Below are positions 16,505 through 63,480 of a stretch of DNA of 64,000 nt, piece by piece. The stretch lies in IMG/VR virus record IMGVR_UViG_3300031718_000177. The stretch is one strand, 5' to 3'. The DNA comes from a virus. Lineage: Duplodnaviria; Heunggongvirae; Uroviricota; Caudoviricetes. A program made the position numbers and the translations under genes. Position 1 is the first letter of the stretch, and every line of letters begins with the position of its first letter. The notes beneath the pieces are model-generated. The model searched no databases, was not told where the DNA came from, and saw only the letters and a list, made by a program, of their open reading frames with translations.

Positions 16505-16622
16505 TGAAACACCTTTCTTTGAGAAAAAACTGACTGCCTATTATATAGGCATCTCCTTTAATAATTGCCCGCTTCCGAGTTGAACGGAAATCGCGAGGGT
16601 CAGAACCTCGTGTGTTAGCCAA

Positions 16623-16946
16623 TTACACCAACGGGCCACCATCATCCTCAAACCGCATAAGTTCGAGATTTTCCATATACCAATCAATCTTACTTTGTAT
16701 ATTAAAATAACAACTTAATAGATTATGTACACCTTTCCACGACTTTTGTTCTCTAATAGCAAATACCAACATATGGCTCGCGTCAATACCTATGATGTGC
16801 ATATGAAAAAACTTACCTATCTTCAGGTTCCGTTCTATGTAAATCTCAGCATCTTCTATTTCCTTGACGCGATATAACTTCCAAGATACATTCTTGTGAT
16901 AAACTCCCTTGTCATATTCGATTAAGGTAAGGCTAGATGCCGCCAT
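16623..16946 (-). CDS. hypothetical protein
   Basis: 107-aa ORF. Confidence 0.45.
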   Translation of the reverse strand: MAASSLTLIEYDKGVYHKNVSWKLYRVKEIEDAEIYIERNLKIGKFFHMHIIGIDASHMLVFAIREQKSWKGVHNLLSCYFNIQSKIDWYMENLELMRFEDDGGPLV

Positions 16947-20769: not shown

Positions 20770-21303
20770 CTAGTTCCCAGGCTTCTCTGTTAAAGAATTT
20801 TGAGATGAACATTCTTCACTCCTCATAATCTCCTCAATCGGAATATTGGCAGTTGCTAAAGACAATCCACCGCGTTTATTTTCTAAATAAGCATTCTTTA
20901 ACATAATAAACTCTTCAGTATAACCGAATCTTACGGGGTTAGAGTATTGTTTTGGTTCCTTTGGCAGCCACAATACTAAGTCATCAAACGAAGGGTTATT
21001 TATGTTGTAAGGTTCGCACTCTACATACCATTTCTTGTCGGCTGATGCTTTAACATGTATATCTATATTAAACTCTGCAACAGGATAGTGGAGGGCGAAG
21101 GGTTTATTGGGGATAGCTTCATATGTTATATTTAATACCCTGCCTATCCTATAGTACCATAAACTAAGATAAACATTACCCAAGGTAAGCAATTCATCTA
21201 TCGGTACTGGTGATACTTGTGATTCACAAGATTGTGCTAAATCTTCACTCGGATATGATGTTTTACATATCTCGCAAATATATTGTGTTATGGCTTTAAC
21301 CAT
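20770..21303 (-). CDS. hypothetical protein
   Basis: 177-aa ORF; its start overlaps the upstream stop (TAATG). Confidence 0.5.
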   Translation of the reverse strand: MVKAITQYICEICKTSYPSEDLAQSCESQVSPVPIDELLTLGNVYLSLWYYRIGRVLNITYEAIPNKPFALHYPVAEFNIDIHVKASADKKWYVECEPYNINNPSFDDLVLWLPKEPKQYSNPVRFGYTEEFIMLKNAYLENKRGGLSLATANIPIEEIMRSEECSSQNSLTEKPGN

Positions 21304-21587
21304 TAGATATCAATGTGTCTTACAATCTCTATTTGTGGAACACAACTCGGCTTGGTTAGTGAAATAAACGGAGGTTCATTACTAAAGAATATATGATGAA
21401 TGACTACGCCCATAATCCAGATAGAACCAATAAATAATGTTATAAAACATGTCCACCAGTATTGTGACCCTCCCGCAACTTGAAGGGCAAAAACAACATA
21501 GGCTACACCGGCAGGAGGGATAAGAAATGTAAGAATGCCTGTAAGTAAAGTATTTATAGCGTATTCTGCTATCTTACGTAAAATCAT
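21303..21587 (-). CDS. small membrane protein (3 TM)
   Basis: 94 aa hydrophobic; its 3' end is a 30-nt element duplicated at 21592..21625. Confidence 0.45.
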   Translation of the reverse strand: MILRKIAEYAINTLLTGILTFLIPPAGVAYVVFALQVAGGSQYWWTCFITLFIGSIWIMGVVIHHIFFSNEPPFISLTKPSCVPQIEIVRHIDI

Positions 21588-21610
21588 ATATCAATGTGCC
21601 TGACAATCTC

Positions 21611-21751
21611 TATTTGCGATTCTACCGTGGGGATTTGTGTAAACTTCGCTTTAACAAAATCTATGAACATTATTGTAAGCCCTAGTATGGCAATTGGAAT
21701 AATAGGAAAAAATATACATACAGCAACGGCATTTTCAATGAAAACAGTCAT
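21611..21751 (-). CDS. small membrane protein (46 aa), likely a paralog of 21303..21587, sub-threshold
   Basis: Hand translation MTVFIENAVAVCIFFPIIPIAILGLTIMFIDFVKAKFTQSPTVESQ; ATGA overlap with the upstream gene stop; shares the 3'-junction repeat. Confidence 0.35.
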
Positions 21752-22029
21752 ATACCTTCACCCATCACCATATCCAAAATATTGTCAATGACAATTCCGT
21801 TCCCTTGGCCAACAACCCAACGGCTACCGTCGCCATCTACACTCTCTATTTGGCACTGCATAACAGGCCAAGTGCCGTTAGCTTTCTTACGCTCAATAAC
21901 TGGCTTATCCCAAACTACTTCGGGACTCTCGAAGATTTCTATCACCTTGCCGATTCGGCCAAAGGCATAAACTAAATCACCAACTTTAGCATCTTTCATT
22001 TTGTCTCTCCAATCGAGTCTTCGCCCCAA
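21748..22029 (-). CDS. hypothetical protein
   Basis: 93-aa ORF. Confidence 0.45.
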   Translation of the reverse strand: MGRRLDWRDKMKDAKVGDLVYAFGRIGKVIEIFESPEVVWDKPVIERKKANGTWPVMQCQIESVDGDGSRWVVGQGNGIVIDNILDMVMGEGI

Positions 22030-22328
22030 TCATCTAGTTTATCATCGTCGGTTGCCATAAAGAGATTTATACCAGCACGATGATGAGAGCCATTAGGAGG
22101 ATAGATGATAGTTATAGTTTCGCCATTATCAAAACTTATGCGATATTCTTCGTTTGCTTTCTTAACACCTGCAACCTTATGTCCTACCAGCTTATTATAA
22201 AACGCTACCTGCTTTTGTATTCGTCGTTCCCACCTACGATCCACCTTATCTTCATGCTTCCACATGAAGATGACTGTACCTATTATTAGGACAGCAGGCG
22301 CCCACATAAAGATTGTTGAAAACTTCAT
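21996..22328 (-). CDS. membrane-anchored protein (paralog 1)
   Basis: 110 aa; N-terminal TM; its paralog lies immediately upstream. Confidence 0.5.
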   Translation of the reverse strand: MKFSTIFMWAPAVLIIGTVIFMWKHEDKVDRRWERRIQKQVAFYNKLVGHKVAGVKKANEEYRISFDNGETITIIYPPNGSHHRAGINLFMATDDDKLDDWGEDSIGETK

Positions 22329-22630
22329 TTTGGTGCCTCTTGGTTGGTTAGATTAACCTTTTCCGTAGCGAAAAAAATGTTTACGCCATCACGACGTGAG
22401 ATATTAGGTGGGTAGACAAGTATCATCGTATCACCCGTATCAAAGTCATACGATATTCATGCTACTGACTCAAACTCTGTAACCTTATGCCCAACCAATT
22501 TTTGGAAGATAAAAGTTTGTTTTTGTATTAGTTTCTCCTGTCCGGTTTTTTCTTGTTTCATATAAAGCCATCCGAAGACAGCCATACCTACGAGAATAAC
22601 AATCGTAGTCCACGCAAGAATTGTTCTCAT
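22325..22630 (-). pseudogene. tandem paralog of 21996..22328 interrupted by an in-frame TGA at 22457..22459
   Basis: Hand translation: 57-aa MRTILAWTTIVILVGMAVFGWLYMKQEKTGQEKLIQKQTFIFQKLVGHKVTEFESVA, then TGA, then in frame ISYDFDTGDTMILVYPPNISRRDGVNIFFATEKVNL…; both halves align to the downstream 110-aa paralog. Confidence 0.5.
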
Positions 22631-22637
22631 CTTTTCC

Positions 22638-22871
22638 TCACAACTTAAAATGTTTATTCTCGTAAATCAACCGCTTGCCTTTTTCTGGTCCTTCATCACC
22701 GTCAAGGACTTCAACTCTAATAATGGCTTGATAAGGCATATCTTTACGAGAATAAGGGTTCTCGCTCAACGCTTTAACAGCACTAGCGAAATCCCTGCAT
22801 CTTACTTTAAGATAAGCAGAAACTCTACGACCAGCCCGAGATAAATAGACAATTCTAGTGATGACTTGCAT
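22638..22871 (-). CDS. hypothetical protein
   Basis: 77-aa ORF. Confidence 0.4.
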   Translation of the reverse strand: MQVITRIVYLSRAGRRVSAYLKVRCRDFASAVKALSENPYSRKDMPYQAIIRVEVLDGDEGPEKGKRLIYENKHFKL

Positions 22872-23760
22872 TTCTCTCCTTCATTATCTCGTCATAAGCC
22901 TCTCCAACTTCCTTGAATCTTTGTATCGCCCCAGGACTCTTGTTAAGGTCTGGATGGTGCCTACGGCGAAGTTGTTTGTACCTTTTAGTAAGTTCTTCAG
23001 TTGATATGGTTCTCTTAACATCAAGAACCTTATAGTAATCTTTGGTGAGCAACCGCCACGCAGCCGGACGACTAAAGACATAATACCATCCATGTACAGC
23101 ATTTACAAGGTCATCGTGGGCGAAATCCGTATATCCATCAAGAAACCTCTCAAACGCCTGTCTCGTATCCCTCAGATAAGACATTGACAGACATTCCTCA
23201 AAGTTATCGTATCTCACTGAATACGATAATCCTACTCTCAGTAGGATGGTAAATAGCGATATACGAAACCGACGCTGCGTCCAAAACGGCGATATTCTCA
23301 TTCGTATAACACCGGGAACATCAATAGGATTAAATACTGTTTTTTTAATCTTTAATCTTGTTTCTACTTGGTCAATAAAGTATGCTACCGATTGAAATAA
23401 CTTTCCTGTTTCGATGTCCTTGTTAGTACCTAGTGTGAATAATAATCTTTCTTGTTTTATTTTAGAATTAAACCATGCTTTAAGGAATTGTTCCCGACTT
23501 CTATAAAATGTTTTAGAGTCAATAAGAGTAGCATACGCTCCTTTTAATTTGCCTATATCTGGATTTTTGCTCTTCCATTTAAGATTATTACCAAACTTCG
23601 GATGGGTTATATGCCATGCTTCTTTTGTGAGCGTTATTTTGTAGTTCTTGTAGAGAGTATGGATAAAAACAGCACCATCCTTGATTTCTGCCGAGATAAT
23701 ACCTGGATTGTCCCTAACTCCTGCATTACGTAGTAATTCAGCAGCAACTTCCTTCTCCAT
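22855..23760 (-). CDS. J-domain protein fused to a member of the W-x2-S-x-LRR...TALLK family
   Basis: C-terminal DnaJ J-domain with HPD (DYYKVLDVKRTISTEELTKRYKQLRRRHHPDLNKS…); central RISPFWTQRRFRISLFTILLRVGLSY aligns with three paralogs elsewhere. Confidence 0.7.
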   Translation of the reverse strand: MEKEVAAELLRNAGVRDNPGIISAEIKDGAVFIHTLYKNYKITLTKEAWHITHPKFGNNLKWKSKNPDIGKLKGAYATLIDSKTFYRSREQFLKAWFNSKIKQERLLFTLGTNKDIETGKLFQSVAYFIDQVETRLKIKKTVFNPIDVPGVIRMRISPFWTQRRFRISLFTILLRVGLSYSVRYDNFEECLSMSYLRDTRQAFERFLDGYTDFAHDDLVNAVHGWYYVFSRPAAWRLLTKDYYKVLDVKRTISTEELTKRYKQLRRRHHPDLNKSPGAIQRFKEVGEAYDEIMKERNASHH

Positions 23761-23797
23761 GTTTCATCTCATCACGTTCGATCTCGTCTAGAATGTG

Positions 23798-26700
23798 CTA
23801 TATTCGTCTTTCATATGCTATATTCTCCGTAAGCGAAACTCGAACGTGGTTAGGAGGTAATAACTTGGTAATCTTACCACGACGCATACCGTTAACCAAA
23901 AACTCATCACCCACCTTGAAGCCGCGAAGTTCTTTAGGAACTTCCTCGTCGTAATGTTCAACGTCACTGGCGAAAAACGACAGGCCCGGATTTCCTTCTC
24001 CAAATGACAGTGACCGGACATATAAAACATCTCTTTGCCTATTACCATTAGTAGAAGGTGCTATCTCAGTAATATCTCCGATACAACCTTTACGATTACC
24101 TCGTATAATTCTAACTTTATCACCAACCCCGAATGTTGAAGATTTCTCGTGTTCCAGAAGATCTATATTTACAAAAGCATGGCTTCCACTGCCAAGCATA
24201 ATATCAACCGTTTCTCCACCAATCTTCCAAATCGTTCCGCTTAAAGCACCTTTCGCATAATTTACAAAATCTCCAGCCTTGAACTTGCTGGGCAGTGTCT
24301 CTCCCTCTGCAAGGTTCGTTTCATCAACATGCTGTAAGCGTTCAAGTCCTACTGGTGAATCGTAATCCCAGGATGGATTGCCACGATCCGCAATAAAGCG
24401 TTTCAGGCCGGTAGCAACACCAACCTTGTACTCTAACACACCGTTATTATATGTTCCTTCGCTACCAGAGTAATCAGTGCTGTGAAGCGGGGCATAATGT
24501 CCCTCTCTTTTGATATTGGCTTGACCATTAGTAATTCCTATAATAGTGCCTCGCCATACTGCTACGCCAGGACATGAAGAAAACCTAACTCTATCGCCAA
24601 CCTTGAATGTAGTATAGTTATCGGGAAGTTTGACAAGTTCCTTAAACGGAAAAGGATATCGAGTGTTTGTGATTTCCGTTTCTTGAGCGGCCTGTAGGAC
24701 TGCAATTCTTTCGGCTCCAGCCAGATGCCCAGCATTGTATATGTCGCATATCTTACCGCAGCATGTTCCTTTGTAATCTCTTACCGTGTCTCCGATCTTG
24801 AATTGTTCTTTATGAGGAACAGGCGGTTTCTCTCGCTCTAATTTATCGTAAGGGCAAGGGATATTTACAAGGCTGCCCTCGGTATTTACTTCGATATATG
24901 CCAAATTATCATATGGTCCACTCTTTCCCCTGTTTTCAATACTCCGAAGGATACCCCTGTATGTCTTACCGTTTGACGTATATTGCACCCTTTCGCCAAT
25001 GGCCGGTCGGAAGATAGGTAATGTCTTTGTCTTTTCTGGTTGTTTCGTTAGAAAATCAACCTCAATATAGTCACTAGGGGCAGAATGCTCATACTCGTGA
25101 GGGCCAAAATACGCCATCGCAGTACTGTAAGCCATCTTTCCAAAAGAAAGAATAGGACGATATTCTTTATGGCAAGCACTTTTAGCCATATCGCCAATAT
25201 GGAAAGTGATGTTGTGTTTATTGGTGGCAACTACAAGTTTGTCTACATTGTCTGGCTTCGGTTGTTTCTCTAAAATATCAATGTCGCTTCGATATTCCCG
25301 AAAATTGCCTATTTGTTGATCACCTTCGGTTCTAATAGCAATTATTTGTTCGCCAATATGCTCAAAACGCTTGATGGGGAGCCAACCAGGATAGTCAGAT
25401 TTCGCACGAACCATATCACCAACAGTGAAGGTAATGCCACGTTCATTGATAGCAGTTGTAAGTTTATCTTCGTTGTCTGGTTGTTTCTCAACCAACTTTG
25501 TAATATCAGTATTTTCGTGAACTACGTTATCCGCCAACCAATAACCATCTCCTTTTATTCCAACCTCGTTTCTTCCATCAGGGAGTAGAGTTTCTACTGT
25601 AAAACCATAACCCATTTCTTTACCATTAAAGTGCCTCACTCTATCACCGACCTTGAATACTTGTCCATATTTATTAGGTTTAGTAGTAGTTGGCTTTTCC
25701 TCTTTCACTGCATTGTTAGCCAAGCAAGATATGGTTTTGCCGGTGAGAGGTTCGGTAGGGTGAGTTTCATAATGAAATATAACTATCGCACCCTTCGAAC
25801 CGCGTCCAAATCCTTTAATCTCTTGATAACCAGCCATCATTGATAAATCGCGACGAGCCATATCACCAATGCGGAAATGGACACCTTGCTTGTTTATGAC
25901 TTCTGTAATTTTTTCGTTCGGATCATATTTAACTGTCTCTCCGGTCTCGAATGCAGACCAGCCGTCATTCGCCGGAATAACTGGTTTGGGCAACTCTTCG
26001 TGCTTGGAATAATCGCCTACCCGAGTTATATTAACATCTCCAGTTAGGCCATCTCGAATGTCCGCAGCAGTCAAATACTCTGTAAAGCCATCTCTATCTG
26101 GTTTGGGTTCAGGAGGAGGATATTGGGCGAACTTTGACGGGACATTATTTTGCTTTACAACAAATGCTTGTAGTTTTTCGTATTCAGTTTTCCAGTAATC
26201 ACGGTCTTTCGTCAATATTCCATATTCTCTTTTCCAGGTGATATCACGCTTCTTAAAAAGATCAAGTTCCATTCTGTCAAGTTCCATCTTCGCTGCTTCA
26301 TACGATAATCCTTCTGTATGTTGATGTTGAACATCAGCCACCGCTTTATTTGTCGCTTGTATAACCTTATTGGTTTCATTGAACTTCTCTAGTATAGCGA
26401 AGGAATACCAAGATGATACAGGGCAAAGGCCGCGACAAAGTGCCACTTTTTTTCCAAATCGCTCCGCTATTTCTTTGATTTCCATTTTATTAACTTCAGT
26501 ATGCTCCTCGCCCTTGAAGACAACATAATTGCCAACTTGGAATTCACTGGTTTCACTTTCGTCAAGGGCAAGAAGCTGTTTTTTAAGATGATCGTCTATT
26601 ACTATCTTATTACCATCGACAACAACATGATCCCCGACCTTGAAAAGAGGCGTAGGTTTGGCGTGTTGTAAATAACGAACATTGTAAAATCCACTCAAAC

Positions 26701-27484
26701 CACTTAATTTAGCTCCTGTATCAGAGCCCCACTTATTTGGAGTCAATGATTCTATCTTGTGGGTCTCAGTGGGATCGTGGCCATTGTAGGATAAACGTTC
26801 ATTCCTAACCGTAACTTCGTCCCCAACCTTGAATTCACTACCATCAGACGTAGCGACATTGTTATACGAAACGACACCAACCTCAACCGGCTGGAACTTA
26901 TTCCGTAATTCATCTCCTAGAAGATTAGCACACCTTTTACTATGAAAACGGACGGCCTGCCGATAATCAGAATGCCATGTTGAATCTTTCGTCCAGTAGA
27001 ATACTCCGTCCGCAATCTGTCCTTTTTCATTACGTCGTATAATCCAATCTTGAGGACAATTCGCACCGTTAGACTCTTTGGACTTCTCTAAATTATTAGT
27101 ATGTACGTTCCACTCTATCCCGTTATCATCAACGCAATACGCTACATTACCCATCGGATTAAAACTCTTGATAGTTACATTTATTGGTTCTGAATGGACA
27201 GAACGTAGCCAATCGTGAGTGTGTCTGAAGTGAGCAACAACTTTATCCCCAACCTTGAATGGTTCATAAACATCATACTTCGGATTGGGGTCTAAGCCCA
27301 CTTCCTTACACCTACTATTTATCTGCTCCACAAAGTCAGCAAAGCCGATAGGGTCAGATGGCAGAGCCTTACCACAGGTATAGGGATATACAAAAGACAT
27401 TGGTTTAAGGGACATATCGACCTTGCCGTGTTCAACTTTCCTAATTGGCAATCCAGCAATCGCTTTGACTAGGTTTCTAAACAT
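23798..27484 (-). CDS. giant leader-bearing repeat protein (1228 aa) with 13 or more F-[KR]-[VI]-G-D-x-V SH3/KOW-like repeats
   Basis: N-terminus MFRNLVKAIAGLPI; repeats FKVGDKVVAHF, FKVGDEVTVRN, FKVGDHVVVDG, FRIGDMARRD, FKVGDRVRHF, FTVGDMVRAK, FKIGDTVRDY, FKVGDRVRFS, FKAGDFVNYA, FGVGDKVRII, FKVGDEFLVNG. Confidence 0.7.
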   Translation of the reverse strand: MFRNLVKAIAGLPIRKVEHGKVDMSLKPMSFVYPYTCGKALPSDPIGFADFVEQINSRCKEVGLDPNPKYDVYEPFKVGDKVVAHFRHTHDWLRSVHSEPINVTIKSFNPMGNVAYCVDDNGIEWNVHTNNLEKSKESNGANCPQDWIIRRNEKGQIADGVFYWTKDSTWHSDYRQAVRFHSKRCANLLGDELRNKFQPVEVGVVSYNNVATSDGSEFKVGDEVTVRNERLSYNGHDPTETHKIESLTPNKWGSDTGAKLSGLSGFYNVRYLQHAKPTPLFKVGDHVVVDGNKIVIDDHLKKQLLALDESETSEFQVGNYVVFKGEEHTEVNKMEIKEIAERFGKKVALCRGLCPVSSWYSFAILEKFNETNKVIQATNKAVADVQHQHTEGLSYEAAKMELDRMELDLFKKRDITWKREYGILTKDRDYWKTEYEKLQAFVVKQNNVPSKFAQYPPPEPKPDRDGFTEYLTAADIRDGLTGDVNITRVGDYSKHEELPKPVIPANDGWSAFETGETVKYDPNEKITEVINKQGVHFRIGDMARRDLSMMAGYQEIKGFGRGSKGAIVIFHYETHPTEPLTGKTISCLANNAVKEEKPTTTKPNKYGQVFKVGDRVRHFNGKEMGYGFTVETLLPDGRNEVGIKGDGYWLADNVVHENTDITKLVEKQPDNEDKLTTAINERGITFTVGDMVRAKSDYPGWLPIKRFEHIGEQIIAIRTEGDQQIGNFREYRSDIDILEKQPKPDNVDKLVVATNKHNITFHIGDMAKSACHKEYRPILSFGKMAYSTAMAYFGPHEYEHSAPSDYIEVDFLTKQPEKTKTLPIFRPAIGERVQYTSNGKTYRGILRSIENRGKSGPYDNLAYIEVNTEGSLVNIPCPYDKLEREKPPVPHKEQFKIGDTVRDYKGTCCGKICDIYNAGHLAGAERIAVLQAAQETEITNTRYPFPFKELVKLPDNYTTFKVGDRVRFSSCPGVAVWRGTIIGITNGQANIKREGHYAPLHSTDYSGSEGTYNNGVLEYKVGVATGLKRFIADRGNPSWDYDSPVGLERLQHVDETNLAEGETLPSKFKAGDFVNYAKGALSGTIWKIGGETVDIMLGSGSHAFVNIDLLEHEKSSTFGVGDKVRIIRGNRKGCIGDITEIAPSTNGNRQRDVLYVRSLSFGEGNPGLSFFASDVEHYDEEVPKELRGFKVGDEFLVNGMRRGKITKLLPPNHVRVSLTENIAYERRI

Positions 27485-62259: not shown

Positions 62260-63480
62260 CTAAAATGATGGTGACAATAATTTCTCAGTTCTACGACGAC
62301 CACTGCCACAAACGGCTGTAACCTTATCGTCTCCATGAGCGTTAATTCGGACGTGTCCCGTCCTATTTTTCCCTAAGTTTTCAATTAAACTTTGGCGATT
62401 AAAAGCAAAATCTTTAATGTTATTTGCGGCTAATACATCCCTATCATGTGTCCTACCGCATTCGCATGTCCATTCTCTTTCGTTAAGTTTAAGGTTACTG
62501 TTGATTTTGCCACAACTACACATTTTACTGCTCGGCTCAAATCTACCAATTTGTAAAATATTGCTTCCATACCACTCACCCTTGTATTGAAGCATCCTTA
62601 CGAAATTGCTCCAACCAGCCGAGGATATTGAATATGCTAAATTGTGATTCTGCAACATTTCCTTTACACTTAAATCTTCAAGACAAATAGATTGGTTCTC
62701 TCGTATTAGTCTTGTTGATAACTTTTGTAAGAAGTCATTTCTTTGATTTGCTACTTTTTCGTGAAGTAAAGCTAACTTCAATCTTGCTTTCTCTCTGCGA
62801 TTGCTGCCTTTTACTTTTCTATCTTTCCATCGTGAAAATAGTTTCAATTTATCTGCGGATTTCTCTAAGTATTTAGGATTTTCTACTCTCTCGCCAGTGG
62901 ACAGAGTAATAAAATGTCTCAGTCCCAAGTCAATTCCGATTGCTTTCTTTCTATCCGGTTTCCTTTTCTTTTTTGGTTGTTCAGTTGTTTCAACCACTAC
63001 CGAAGCAAAATATTTATTTGTCGGCGTCTTACTTATAGTAACTGTTTTAATCGTCCCGTTAAACTTGCGATGCAATGTTGCTTTAATATTTTTGATTTTT
63101 GGTACAGTAATTGTTTCCTTATCAAAATCTACTTTGTTACTTTGCGGACACTGGAACGACTGGTAACTTGATTTCTTCTTAAACTTTGGGAAACCATTCT
63201 TCTCTCGGAAGAAACGAGTATAAGCGTTGTCCAAGTTTCTTAATGCCATTTGTAGCGACTGGGCATTAACTTCGGTAAGCCATTCTATTTTTTGTTTCAA
63301 TTTAGTTAATTCGCCGTTCAGGTCTATACAAGATAGACCTTTCTTTGTTTCTTTATATGTTTGTATTTTAGTTTCTAGCCCCCAATTGTAAACAAATCTT
63401 GAACAACCAAAATGTTTGCTGAAAAGTGCCTTCTGTTCTTCTGTGGGATAAATCCTATATTTGTACGCTTTCAATATCAT
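62260..63480 (-). CDS. tnpB: IS200/IS605-family TnpB (OrfB), intact
   Basis: RuvC-I IGIDLG, RuvC-II ICLEDLSVKEM, zinc finger CSCGK…CECG, RuvC-III RDVLAANNI; 406 aa. Confidence 0.85.
   Translation of the reverse strand: MILKAYKYRIYPTEEQKALFSKHFGCSRFVYNWGLETKIQTYKETKKGLSCIDLNGELTKLKQKIEWLTEVNAQSLQMALRNLDNAYTRFFREKNGFPKFKKKSSYQSFQCPQSNKVDFDKETITVPKIKNIKATLHRKFNGTIKTVTISKTPTNKYFASVVVETTEQPKKKRKPDRKKAIGIDLGLRHFITLSTGERVENPKYLEKSADKLKLFSRWKDRKVKGSNRREKARLKLALLHEKVANQRNDFLQKLSTRLIRENQSICLEDLSVKEMLQNHNLAYSISSAGWSNFVRMLQYKGEWYGSNILQIGRFEPSSKMCSCGKINSNLKLNEREWTCECGRTHDRDVLAANNIKDFAFNRQSLIENLGKNRTGHVRINAHGDDKVTAVCGSGRRRTEKLLSPSF

Follow-up and report, generated by a model that had tools for sequence, protein, structure and literature searches.

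An in-frame TGA in a tandem paralog of a small phage membrane-protein gene: probable recent gene disruption rather than programmed recoding

The coat/A1 gene of phage Qbeta is a phage gene in which a UGA is followed by an open in-frame continuation, with a leaky readthrough of about 5% (PMC7026636, table 1); there the stop comes at the end of a complete, functional coat protein, and both the stop and the extension are conserved and required for infectivity. The tetranucleotide UGA-A has been reported as the context most prone to misreading by tRNA-Trp and is leaky in E. coli (PMC5289835). Early in-frame stops are also found in prfB (RF2), which is expressed by a +1 frameshift, and in T4 gene 60, which is expressed by bypassing and has a hairpin near the stop, and in-frame TGA codons occur in stop-codon-recoded phages and in selenoprotein genes. 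Two other kinds of event can leave a similar trace. In a frameshift-disrupted tandem paralog, homology to the intact neighbour persists on both sides of the lesion, indels lead to a premature stop and the remnant is left as an intergenic gap. In a pair of compensatory frameshifting mutations (pCFM), two indels whose lengths are not multiples of three lie a few codons apart and enclose a short out-of-frame patch, which has to be free of stops if the protein is to remain functional (sequences with in-frame stops were filtered out in the pCFM study).

The gene described here lies in a stretch of 64,000 nucleotides of phage DNA (hereafter the window), itself part of a 292-kb genome, on the minus strand, which holds every gene in this part of the window. 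Translation of the minus strand from 22630 to 22325 yields 57 codons (MRTILAWTTIVILVGMAVFGWLYMKQEKTGQEKLIQKQTFIFQKLVGHKVTEFESVA), a TGA (22459..22457), a further 43 codons (ISYDFDTGDTMILVYPPNISRRDGVNIFFATEKVNLTNQEAPK) and a terminal TGA (22327..22325), which forms an ATGA together with the start codon (22328..22326) of the next gene. This next gene (21996..22328, minus strand) encodes a protein of 110 aa with a transmembrane helix and a small beta-rich domain, as indicated by the ORF list, BLASTP, protein searches and a structural model. The earlier note on this DNA, made from the sequence alone, had reported a paralog of the 110-aa gene split by a single TGA, and the pattern is real and not due to chance: the frame of 57 aa, TGA and 43 aa is confirmed by translation, the read-through product shows 36% identity to its 110-aa neighbour over 96 aa (E 3e-21), the overlap with the next start codon is present as described, and TGA indeed acts as a true stop elsewhere, e.g. 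at 21750..21748, where it terminates an 83/93-aa gene. Of the two explanations that had been offered, a very recent nonsense mutation or a site of programmed readthrough, the first is right in outline though not in mechanism, and the second finds no positive support. The comparisons presented below suggest a recently disrupted tandem paralog, i.e. ordinary gene decay or truncation rather than programmed recoding, to which we assign a probability of roughly 0.78.

The truncated upstream copy (22457..22630, minus strand), which is present in the ORF list and has been called as the gene P0001 in public assemblies, comprises an N-terminal transmembrane helix (residues 4–22, where the 19-residue Kyte-Doolittle maximum reaches 2.20), a juxtamembrane helix and the conserved KLVGHKV motif, and ends at the premature TGA (22457..22459), which is followed by A. 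A Shine-Dalgarno-like GAGGA (22635..22639, minus strand) is found 4 nt before the ATG at 22630, overlapping the TGA stop of the upstream 77-aa gene. The sequence beyond the stop (22325..22456, minus strand) is a putative relic of the C-terminal domain with 43 open codons, homologous to the intact copies from FDTGDTM on. Its last bases form the ATGA overlap, and the AGAGG (22340..22336) that serves the intact copy downstream as Shine-Dalgarno sequence lies within it as well. The relic has been left uncalled in the public assemblies, which show a gap of 128 nt at this place. A terminator-like hairpin within it (22397..22383) is within chance expectation.

P0001 has been called on three public contigs, namely a contig of 292,671 bp from ENA (ERZ27256860), one of 0.2–1 Mb, and a Logan contig of 30.5 kb (SRR8558719). 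Two of them were compared with the window and found to be identical to it, including the TGA, over 20,174 bases and, for the Logan contig, over 16,942 bases. Two different assemblers therefore agree on the sequence with the TGA, and the contigs appear to represent one phage population, so that their agreement is not an evolutionary replication. It could be argued that the true gene is intact and that the indels described below, together with the TGA, are errors of sequencing or assembly, given that all three contigs apparently come from one sample or population and that exact look-ups of the flanking proteins returned the same three contigs, with no independent strain or strain variant among them. 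We consider such an artefact very unlikely, since the ENA contig (of the MEGAHIT-style k141 type) and the Logan contig are identical over the 16,942 bases, there is no homopolymer run at the site, two separate indels would both have to be errors, and the longest word common to the split gene and its paralog is 8 nt, which is too short for a chimeric join.

Homology to the intact gene is significant on both sides of the lesion. The 57-aa part and the N-terminal part of its intact neighbour are 39% identical (E 4e-10). In tblastn against the six-frame window, the C-terminal half of the intact paralog matches the 43-codon part on its own with E 4e-7, and that of the outside homolog P0004 does so with E 1e-3. 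P0004, a protein of 116 aa, was identified by an exhaustive HMMER search of 1.84 billion representatives with a profile of the two paralogs (E 1.8e-9, full-length match) and is the single true outside homolog, so that the family is known from three sequences: the split copy, the intact paralog and P0004. Three other candidates from the HMMER search, P0003, P0005 and P0006, were rejected as long proteins that are matched in 8–11 separate stretches, P0003 and P0005 being highly repetitive. Of the two copies in the window, P0004 resembles the split one more closely, as illustrated by the pairs KLVGHKVIEF/KLVGHKVTEF and FDTGDTMIFV/FDTGDTMILV. It is encoded on contigs of 570 and 721 bp with a different gene context; synteny with the window was not found, and the gene upstream of P0004 has no counterpart in it.

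All three family members possess one N-terminal hydrophobic segment (Kyte-Doolittle values of 2.05–2.48 over 19 residues), and KLVGHKV, which the truncated copy has kept, is the most conserved motif of the family. Searches of Pfam and PHROG identified no family match for the small membrane protein. The AlphaFold2 model of the intact paralog, which is of low confidence (pLDDT 52), comprises a helix (residues 3–48) and four strands (52–58, 61–66, 71–75 and 88–92). According to this model, the stop of the split copy is predicted to align with the turn between beta strands 1 and 2, i.e. inside the domain and not at a domain boundary.

Closer relatives of the locus were sought extensively. Megablast and blastn searches with the locus and a tblastn search with the read-through product against 50,697 phage records gave no match, and scans of IMG/VR (with the J-domain protein encoded nearby, the family alignment and the 1228-aa neighbour), of the JGI metagenomes and of the GTDB genomes revealed no relatives. 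INPHARED contained no closer relatives of the split gene. A word-indexed search of 5.8 billion proteins returned the window's own two proteins, and across the word-indexed searches only P0004 appeared beside them. The window looks like a part of a very divergent jumbo phage: nearly all of its genes are on one strand, most of them are ORFans, and the gene content includes a clamp-loader-like protein, a TnpB-type transposase, and SprT-like, Band_7 and J-domain proteins.

The origin of the TGA is revealed by the alignment of nucleotides rather than residues. Upstream of the lesion, frame 0 of the split gene fits the homologs (TEFESV versus IEFKRI), and it fits again downstream from FD, where the protein alignments of the C-terminal half begin. 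Between these points lies a patch of 16 nt, CATGAATATCGTATGA (22446..22461, minus strand), delimited by MAFFT DNA alignments and an offset scan; the sequences flanking the lesion are AAATTGGTTGGGCATAAGGTT and TTTGATACGGGTGATACGATGATA. When the split gene is aligned with its intact neighbour, a 2-nt gap falls right before CATGAATATCG and a 1-nt gap right after TATGA, and the three-way alignment with the gene for P0004 introduces gaps of 5 nt and 1 nt at the same places. Frame-breaking indels are thus located at 22462/22461 and 22446/22445, one at each edge of the patch and 16 nt apart; their sizes are −2 and −1 with respect to the paralog (net −3 nt) and −5 and −1 with respect to P0004, and in both cases their sum restores the frame.

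All three genes contain the heptamer GAATATC unchanged, but it is read in two registers: GAA TAT Cgc (E Y R, within EEYRIS) in the intact paralog and GAA TAT Cat (E Y H, within GEYHIK) in P0004, versus tGA ATA TCg in the split gene. In the ancestral frame the patch would read CAT GAA TAT CGT ATG A.., i.e. H E Y R M, which fits the family motif E-Y-[RH]-[IM], and in the actual frame it reads gCA TGA ATA TCG TAT GAc, i.e. A, stop, I, S, Y, D. The TGA is therefore composed of the wobble T of one ancestral codon and the GA of the conserved Glu codon GAA, and the residues around the stop (A-stop-ISYD) represent an out-of-register reading of the nucleotides that specify EEYRIS in the intact paralog and GEYHIK in P0004. 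Shifted by one base, the patch shares 12 of 16 positions with the intact paralog and 11 of 16 with P0004, compared to 2/16 and 3/16, respectively, in the in-frame register and 1–7/16 at the other offsets. When the 36-nt segment of the split gene was shuffled, about 0.5% of the shuffles reached both word matches (at least 8 nt with the intact paralog and at least 7 nt with P0004; P ~0.005).

The stop thus did not arise by substitution in a sense codon. Frame 0 agrees with the homologs before and after the patch, and the patch agrees with them only when shifted by one base; two indels have put five codons one base out of register. The suggestion of a recent nonsense mutation accordingly holds as far as the paralog is disrupted and its C-terminal part is still coding-like, but the DNA alignments and the offset scan point to a pair of indels and not to a single substitution as the mechanism. 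Likewise, the part after the stop does align with the intact paralog, but only from FD onward, and homology across the stop is not in frame. As to the proposed comparison with related genomes, the paralog and P0004, both distant homologs, have no stop at this position and read the nucleotides concerned in another frame. Quasi-palindrome template switching was considered as the origin of the patch and found to be unsupported, as only a 7-nt core matches the opposite arm.

The history of the locus may be reconstructed as follows. A gene for a small single-pass membrane protein would have undergone tandem duplication, and the upstream copy would later have been disrupted. Ribosomes would start at the good Shine-Dalgarno sequence and ATG at 22630 and terminate at 22459..22457, producing a 57-aa membrane-anchored stub in which the transmembrane helix and the KLVGHKV-bearing juxtamembrane helix are followed by the first beta strand. 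The stub is probably still made, because the GAGGA sequence has been kept 4 nt before the ATG. The following 132 nt would be an untranslated relic of the beta-rich domain, too young to have decayed, whose 3' part would be retained because it holds the AGAGG and the start codon from which the intact paralog is translated. Full-length protein would arise only by unprogrammed background leakage at the UGA, and it would lack the conserved E-Y-[RH]-I strand.

The state of the relic bears on the age of the disruption. Its 43 open codons have a probability of about 0.05 by chance, as estimated from base composition, and the other two frames contain 4–6 stops. The dN/dS of the relic with respect to the homologs is 0.15–0.5, as low as in the N-terminal part (~0.2), with dS saturated and close relatives lacking, and several synonymous differences occur in residues identical to those of the homologs. 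Because dS is saturated, the low dN/dS would reflect old history rather than present selection; it shows only that most of the divergence arose under selection, not that the relic is translated today. The disruption is therefore recent when measured against the duplication, and in the relic no additional decay can be seen.

A few observations speak mildly against simple decay. Two compensating indels so close together would be a mild coincidence if they were independent neutral events, of a kind to be met in a small minority of cases. One complex mutation could explain both the pair of indels and the undecayed relic, and past selection to restore the frame could also account for the pair. Or perhaps the gene could be a formerly functional compensated frameshift (compare PMC8935012), which later gained, or always had, the T of the TGA? 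Apart from the intact state of the relic, the shifted patch retains the alternation of hydrophobic and polar residues (I-S-Y-D-F versus Y-R-I-S-F) expected of a beta strand, and the stop stands in the leaky UGA-A context.

The same observations can be read in favour of low-level readthrough maintained by selection, in which UGA-A would be decoded by tRNA-Trp at a few percent and the gene would give the stub and a little of a 101-aa protein, as in Qbeta coat/A1; according to this explanation the compensating second indel would have been kept because the domain behind the stop is still in use. The relic has no stop in its frame, which is that of the stub, and it runs up to the ancestral ATGA overlap, the indels are compensating and close, and a hairpin begins 2 nt past the stop, to which the dN/dS of the relic, the UGA-A context and the strand-like patch may be added. 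We nevertheless regard selected readthrough as unlikely. The stop is conserved in no relative, as the only homologs, the intact paralog and P0004, read the same nucleotides in another frame; the product would lose the conserved E-Y-[RH]-I motif; the stop is predicted to lie inside the domain and not at the end of a complete protein; and dS is saturated, so that the low dN/dS reflects old history. A is also found at position +4 in 5 of 12 other genuine (ordinary) TGA terminators nearby.

The hairpin after the stop (22424..22455, minus strand) consists of an 8-bp stem, UAUCGUAU/AUACGAUG, and a 4-bp inner stem, with a predicted energy of −12.1 kcal/mol (z −1.74, not significant; 11 of 200 shuffles are as stable), and the 91-nt fold at the stop is not more stable than shuffled sequences. 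A stronger hairpin is found at the equivalent place in the gene for P0004, which has no stop there, and none in the intact paralog. The hairpin of the P0004 gene (L003 549–594) is an 11-bp perfect stem in a coding region with −13.7 kcal/mol, z −3.48 and none of 200 shuffles as stable. Thus, neither the A at +4 nor the weak hairpin is specific to the TGA site. A search of Rfam at the stop with E-values up to 10 revealed no element nearby, including SECIS and known recoding motifs. Programmed readthrough as originally envisaged therefore finds no positive support: the stop is absent from the two homologs, there is no Rfam element, and the A at +4 and the hairpin are unspecific. A more specific variant, in which selection has retained the pair of compensating indels and the UGA-A is a tolerated leaky stop that fixes a low ratio of full-length protein to 57-aa stub, seems to us quite improbable; if it were true, the stub with its transmembrane helix and KLVGHKV would modulate the intact neighbour, and the locus would be a readthrough-based dosage device born of a frameshift in a DNA phage.

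Re-initiation after the stop would be another way of using the relic. It contains an internal ORF of 33 codons (MILVYPPN..., 22325..22426, minus strand; ORF list and sequence), which starts 31 nt past the stop, is preceded at a distance of 3 nt by GGTGAT (22435..22430), a 6-nt sequence complementary to the anti-Shine-Dalgarno sequence, and ends in ATGA over the next start. A restart at the ATG at 22426 could thus amount to gene fission with a 33-aa C-terminal peptide, or to a coupling relay to the downstream paralog via the ATGA. However, GGTGAT and the ATG encode the conserved G-D-T-M and are therefore explained by ancestry, a piece of 33 aa devoid of strand 2 would be unlikely to fold, the intact paralog is already provided with an AGAGG Shine-Dalgarno sequence, and there is no comparative support; we judge fission or re-initiation to be highly improbable.

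Frameshifting and bypassing find little in the sequence. The +1 frame at the stop reads EYRMTLIRVIR and closes with a stop after 11 codons, and neither a CUU-U slippery site nor an upstream Shine-Dalgarno-like stimulator of +1 frameshifting can be read at the stop. For bypassing, the take-off (P-site) codon would be GCA, and no GCA landing codon occurs in the approximately 130 nt before the end of the relic. A double programmed frameshift (+1 and then back) was rejected, as slippery sites are absent and the ribosome would have to be recoded twice.

The in-frame TGA by itself, and nothing more, could suggest that TGA is reassigned or specially decoded in this phage, by an alternative code, a phage suppressor tRNA or selenocysteine. 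On the 20 kb surrounding the split gene, 32 genes have been called, and TGA ends more of them (13) than TAA (11) or TAG (8), in many cases within an ATGA overlap. Single stops between two long open stretches, counted over the whole window, are formed by TAA in 32 cases, TGA in 23 and TAG in 21, which is no excess of TGA, and long ORFs lack in-frame TGA: the neighbouring ORF of 1228 aa, which includes Trp residues, runs without a break when read with the standard code. The sole tRNA gene in the 64-kb window is for Gln with the anticodon CTG (16564–16638, minus strand), and no suppressor tRNA was found there. The homologs have E or G, and not Cys, at the position aligned with the stop, unlike what would be expected of a selenoprotein, and no SECIS or other Rfam match was obtained. 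The window therefore uses the standard genetic code, and reassignment of TGA can be regarded as excluded for this region, because TGA is the main terminator, there is no excess of frames split by it, the long ORF is uninterrupted and the only tRNA is Gln-CTG; the probability of any special decoding is in our view very small.

Several other features of the window deserve a mention. The 1228-aa ORF (23798–27484, minus strand) is made up of a short module, recognizable by F-[KR]-[VI]-G-D-x-V, that recurs about a dozen times, and has no Pfam match on record and no relatives in IMG/VR. A tandem direct repeat of 20 nt (23784–23823, 80% identical) spans the 3' end of this ORF (23798) and the gap before the adjacent J-domain gene. 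The latter (22855–23760, minus strand) encodes a protein of 301 aa with the J-domain at its extreme C-terminus only (residues 241–295, Pfam DnaJ, E 1.2e-14); searches of the phage records matched the J-domain alone, and the N-terminal 240 residues had no match in the phage-record and Pfam searches. On the other side of the paralogs, a direct repeat of 34 nt, 88% identical, is found at 21302–21335 and 21583–21616, with a partial third copy at 21838–21852. The repeat corresponds to the 3' ends of adjacent genes for small membrane proteins of 94 and 55 aa, both of which end with QIEIVRHIDI and overlap the next start codon, and which show no obvious similarity outside the repeat; it could be a remnant of a second tandem duplication or a conserved coupling or regulatory element. 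Far from this region, a 406-aa ORF (62260–63480, minus strand) matches the PHROG transposase family phrog_506 with E 1.9e-120, which we take to be of the IS200/IS605 TnpB type, and would be a mobile element or a relative of RNA-guided nucleases in the phage genome.

Returning to the split gene, the disrupted tandem paralog remains the preferred explanation. The ORFan family is novel, but the event itself would be ordinary and matters little beyond annotation, where the 128 nt left uncalled behind the 57-aa gene are best labelled as the remnant of a disrupted paralog and not as a recoding site. The case also calls for caution, as a stop in frame that is flanked by homologous sequence before and after it can mimic a nonsense codon or readthrough until the nucleotide alignment reveals a patch bounded by indels. 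Should readthrough nevertheless be true, the locus would be a rare example in a large DNA phage.

Among the known systems, the closest is the frameshift-disrupted tandem paralog, with which the locus shares the homology to the intact neighbour on both sides, the indels leading to a premature stop and the remnant left as an intergenic gap; it departs from the usual case in that the indels compensate each other, the remnant is back in frame without further decay, and the stub keeps a good ribosome-binding site. These departures resemble a pCFM, with two indels that are not multiples of three a few codons apart and a short out-of-frame patch, but here the TGA (22459..22457) lies inside the shifted segment, which in a functional pair is free of stops, and the protein is not rescued. 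The likeness to Qbeta coat/A1 lies in a phage gene with a UGA and an open in-frame continuation, for which misreading of UGA-A by tRNA-Trp would be the mechanism; in Qbeta the stop ends a complete protein and is conserved with its extension, whereas here it falls in a frame-shifted patch within a predicted domain and neither of the two homologs has it, so that conservation of stop and extension among relatives is not seen. With prfB and T4 gene 60 the locus shares an early in-frame stop and, with gene 60, a hairpin near it; unlike them, it has no CUU-U site, no Shine-Dalgarno-like stimulator, a +1 frame that closes after 11 codons and no GCA landing codon. Finally, the stop-codon-recoded phages and selenoprotein genes have the in-frame TGA in common with it, but here TGA is the main terminator, suppressor tRNA and SECIS are missing from the window, and the TGA is a single case that is explained by the pair of indels.
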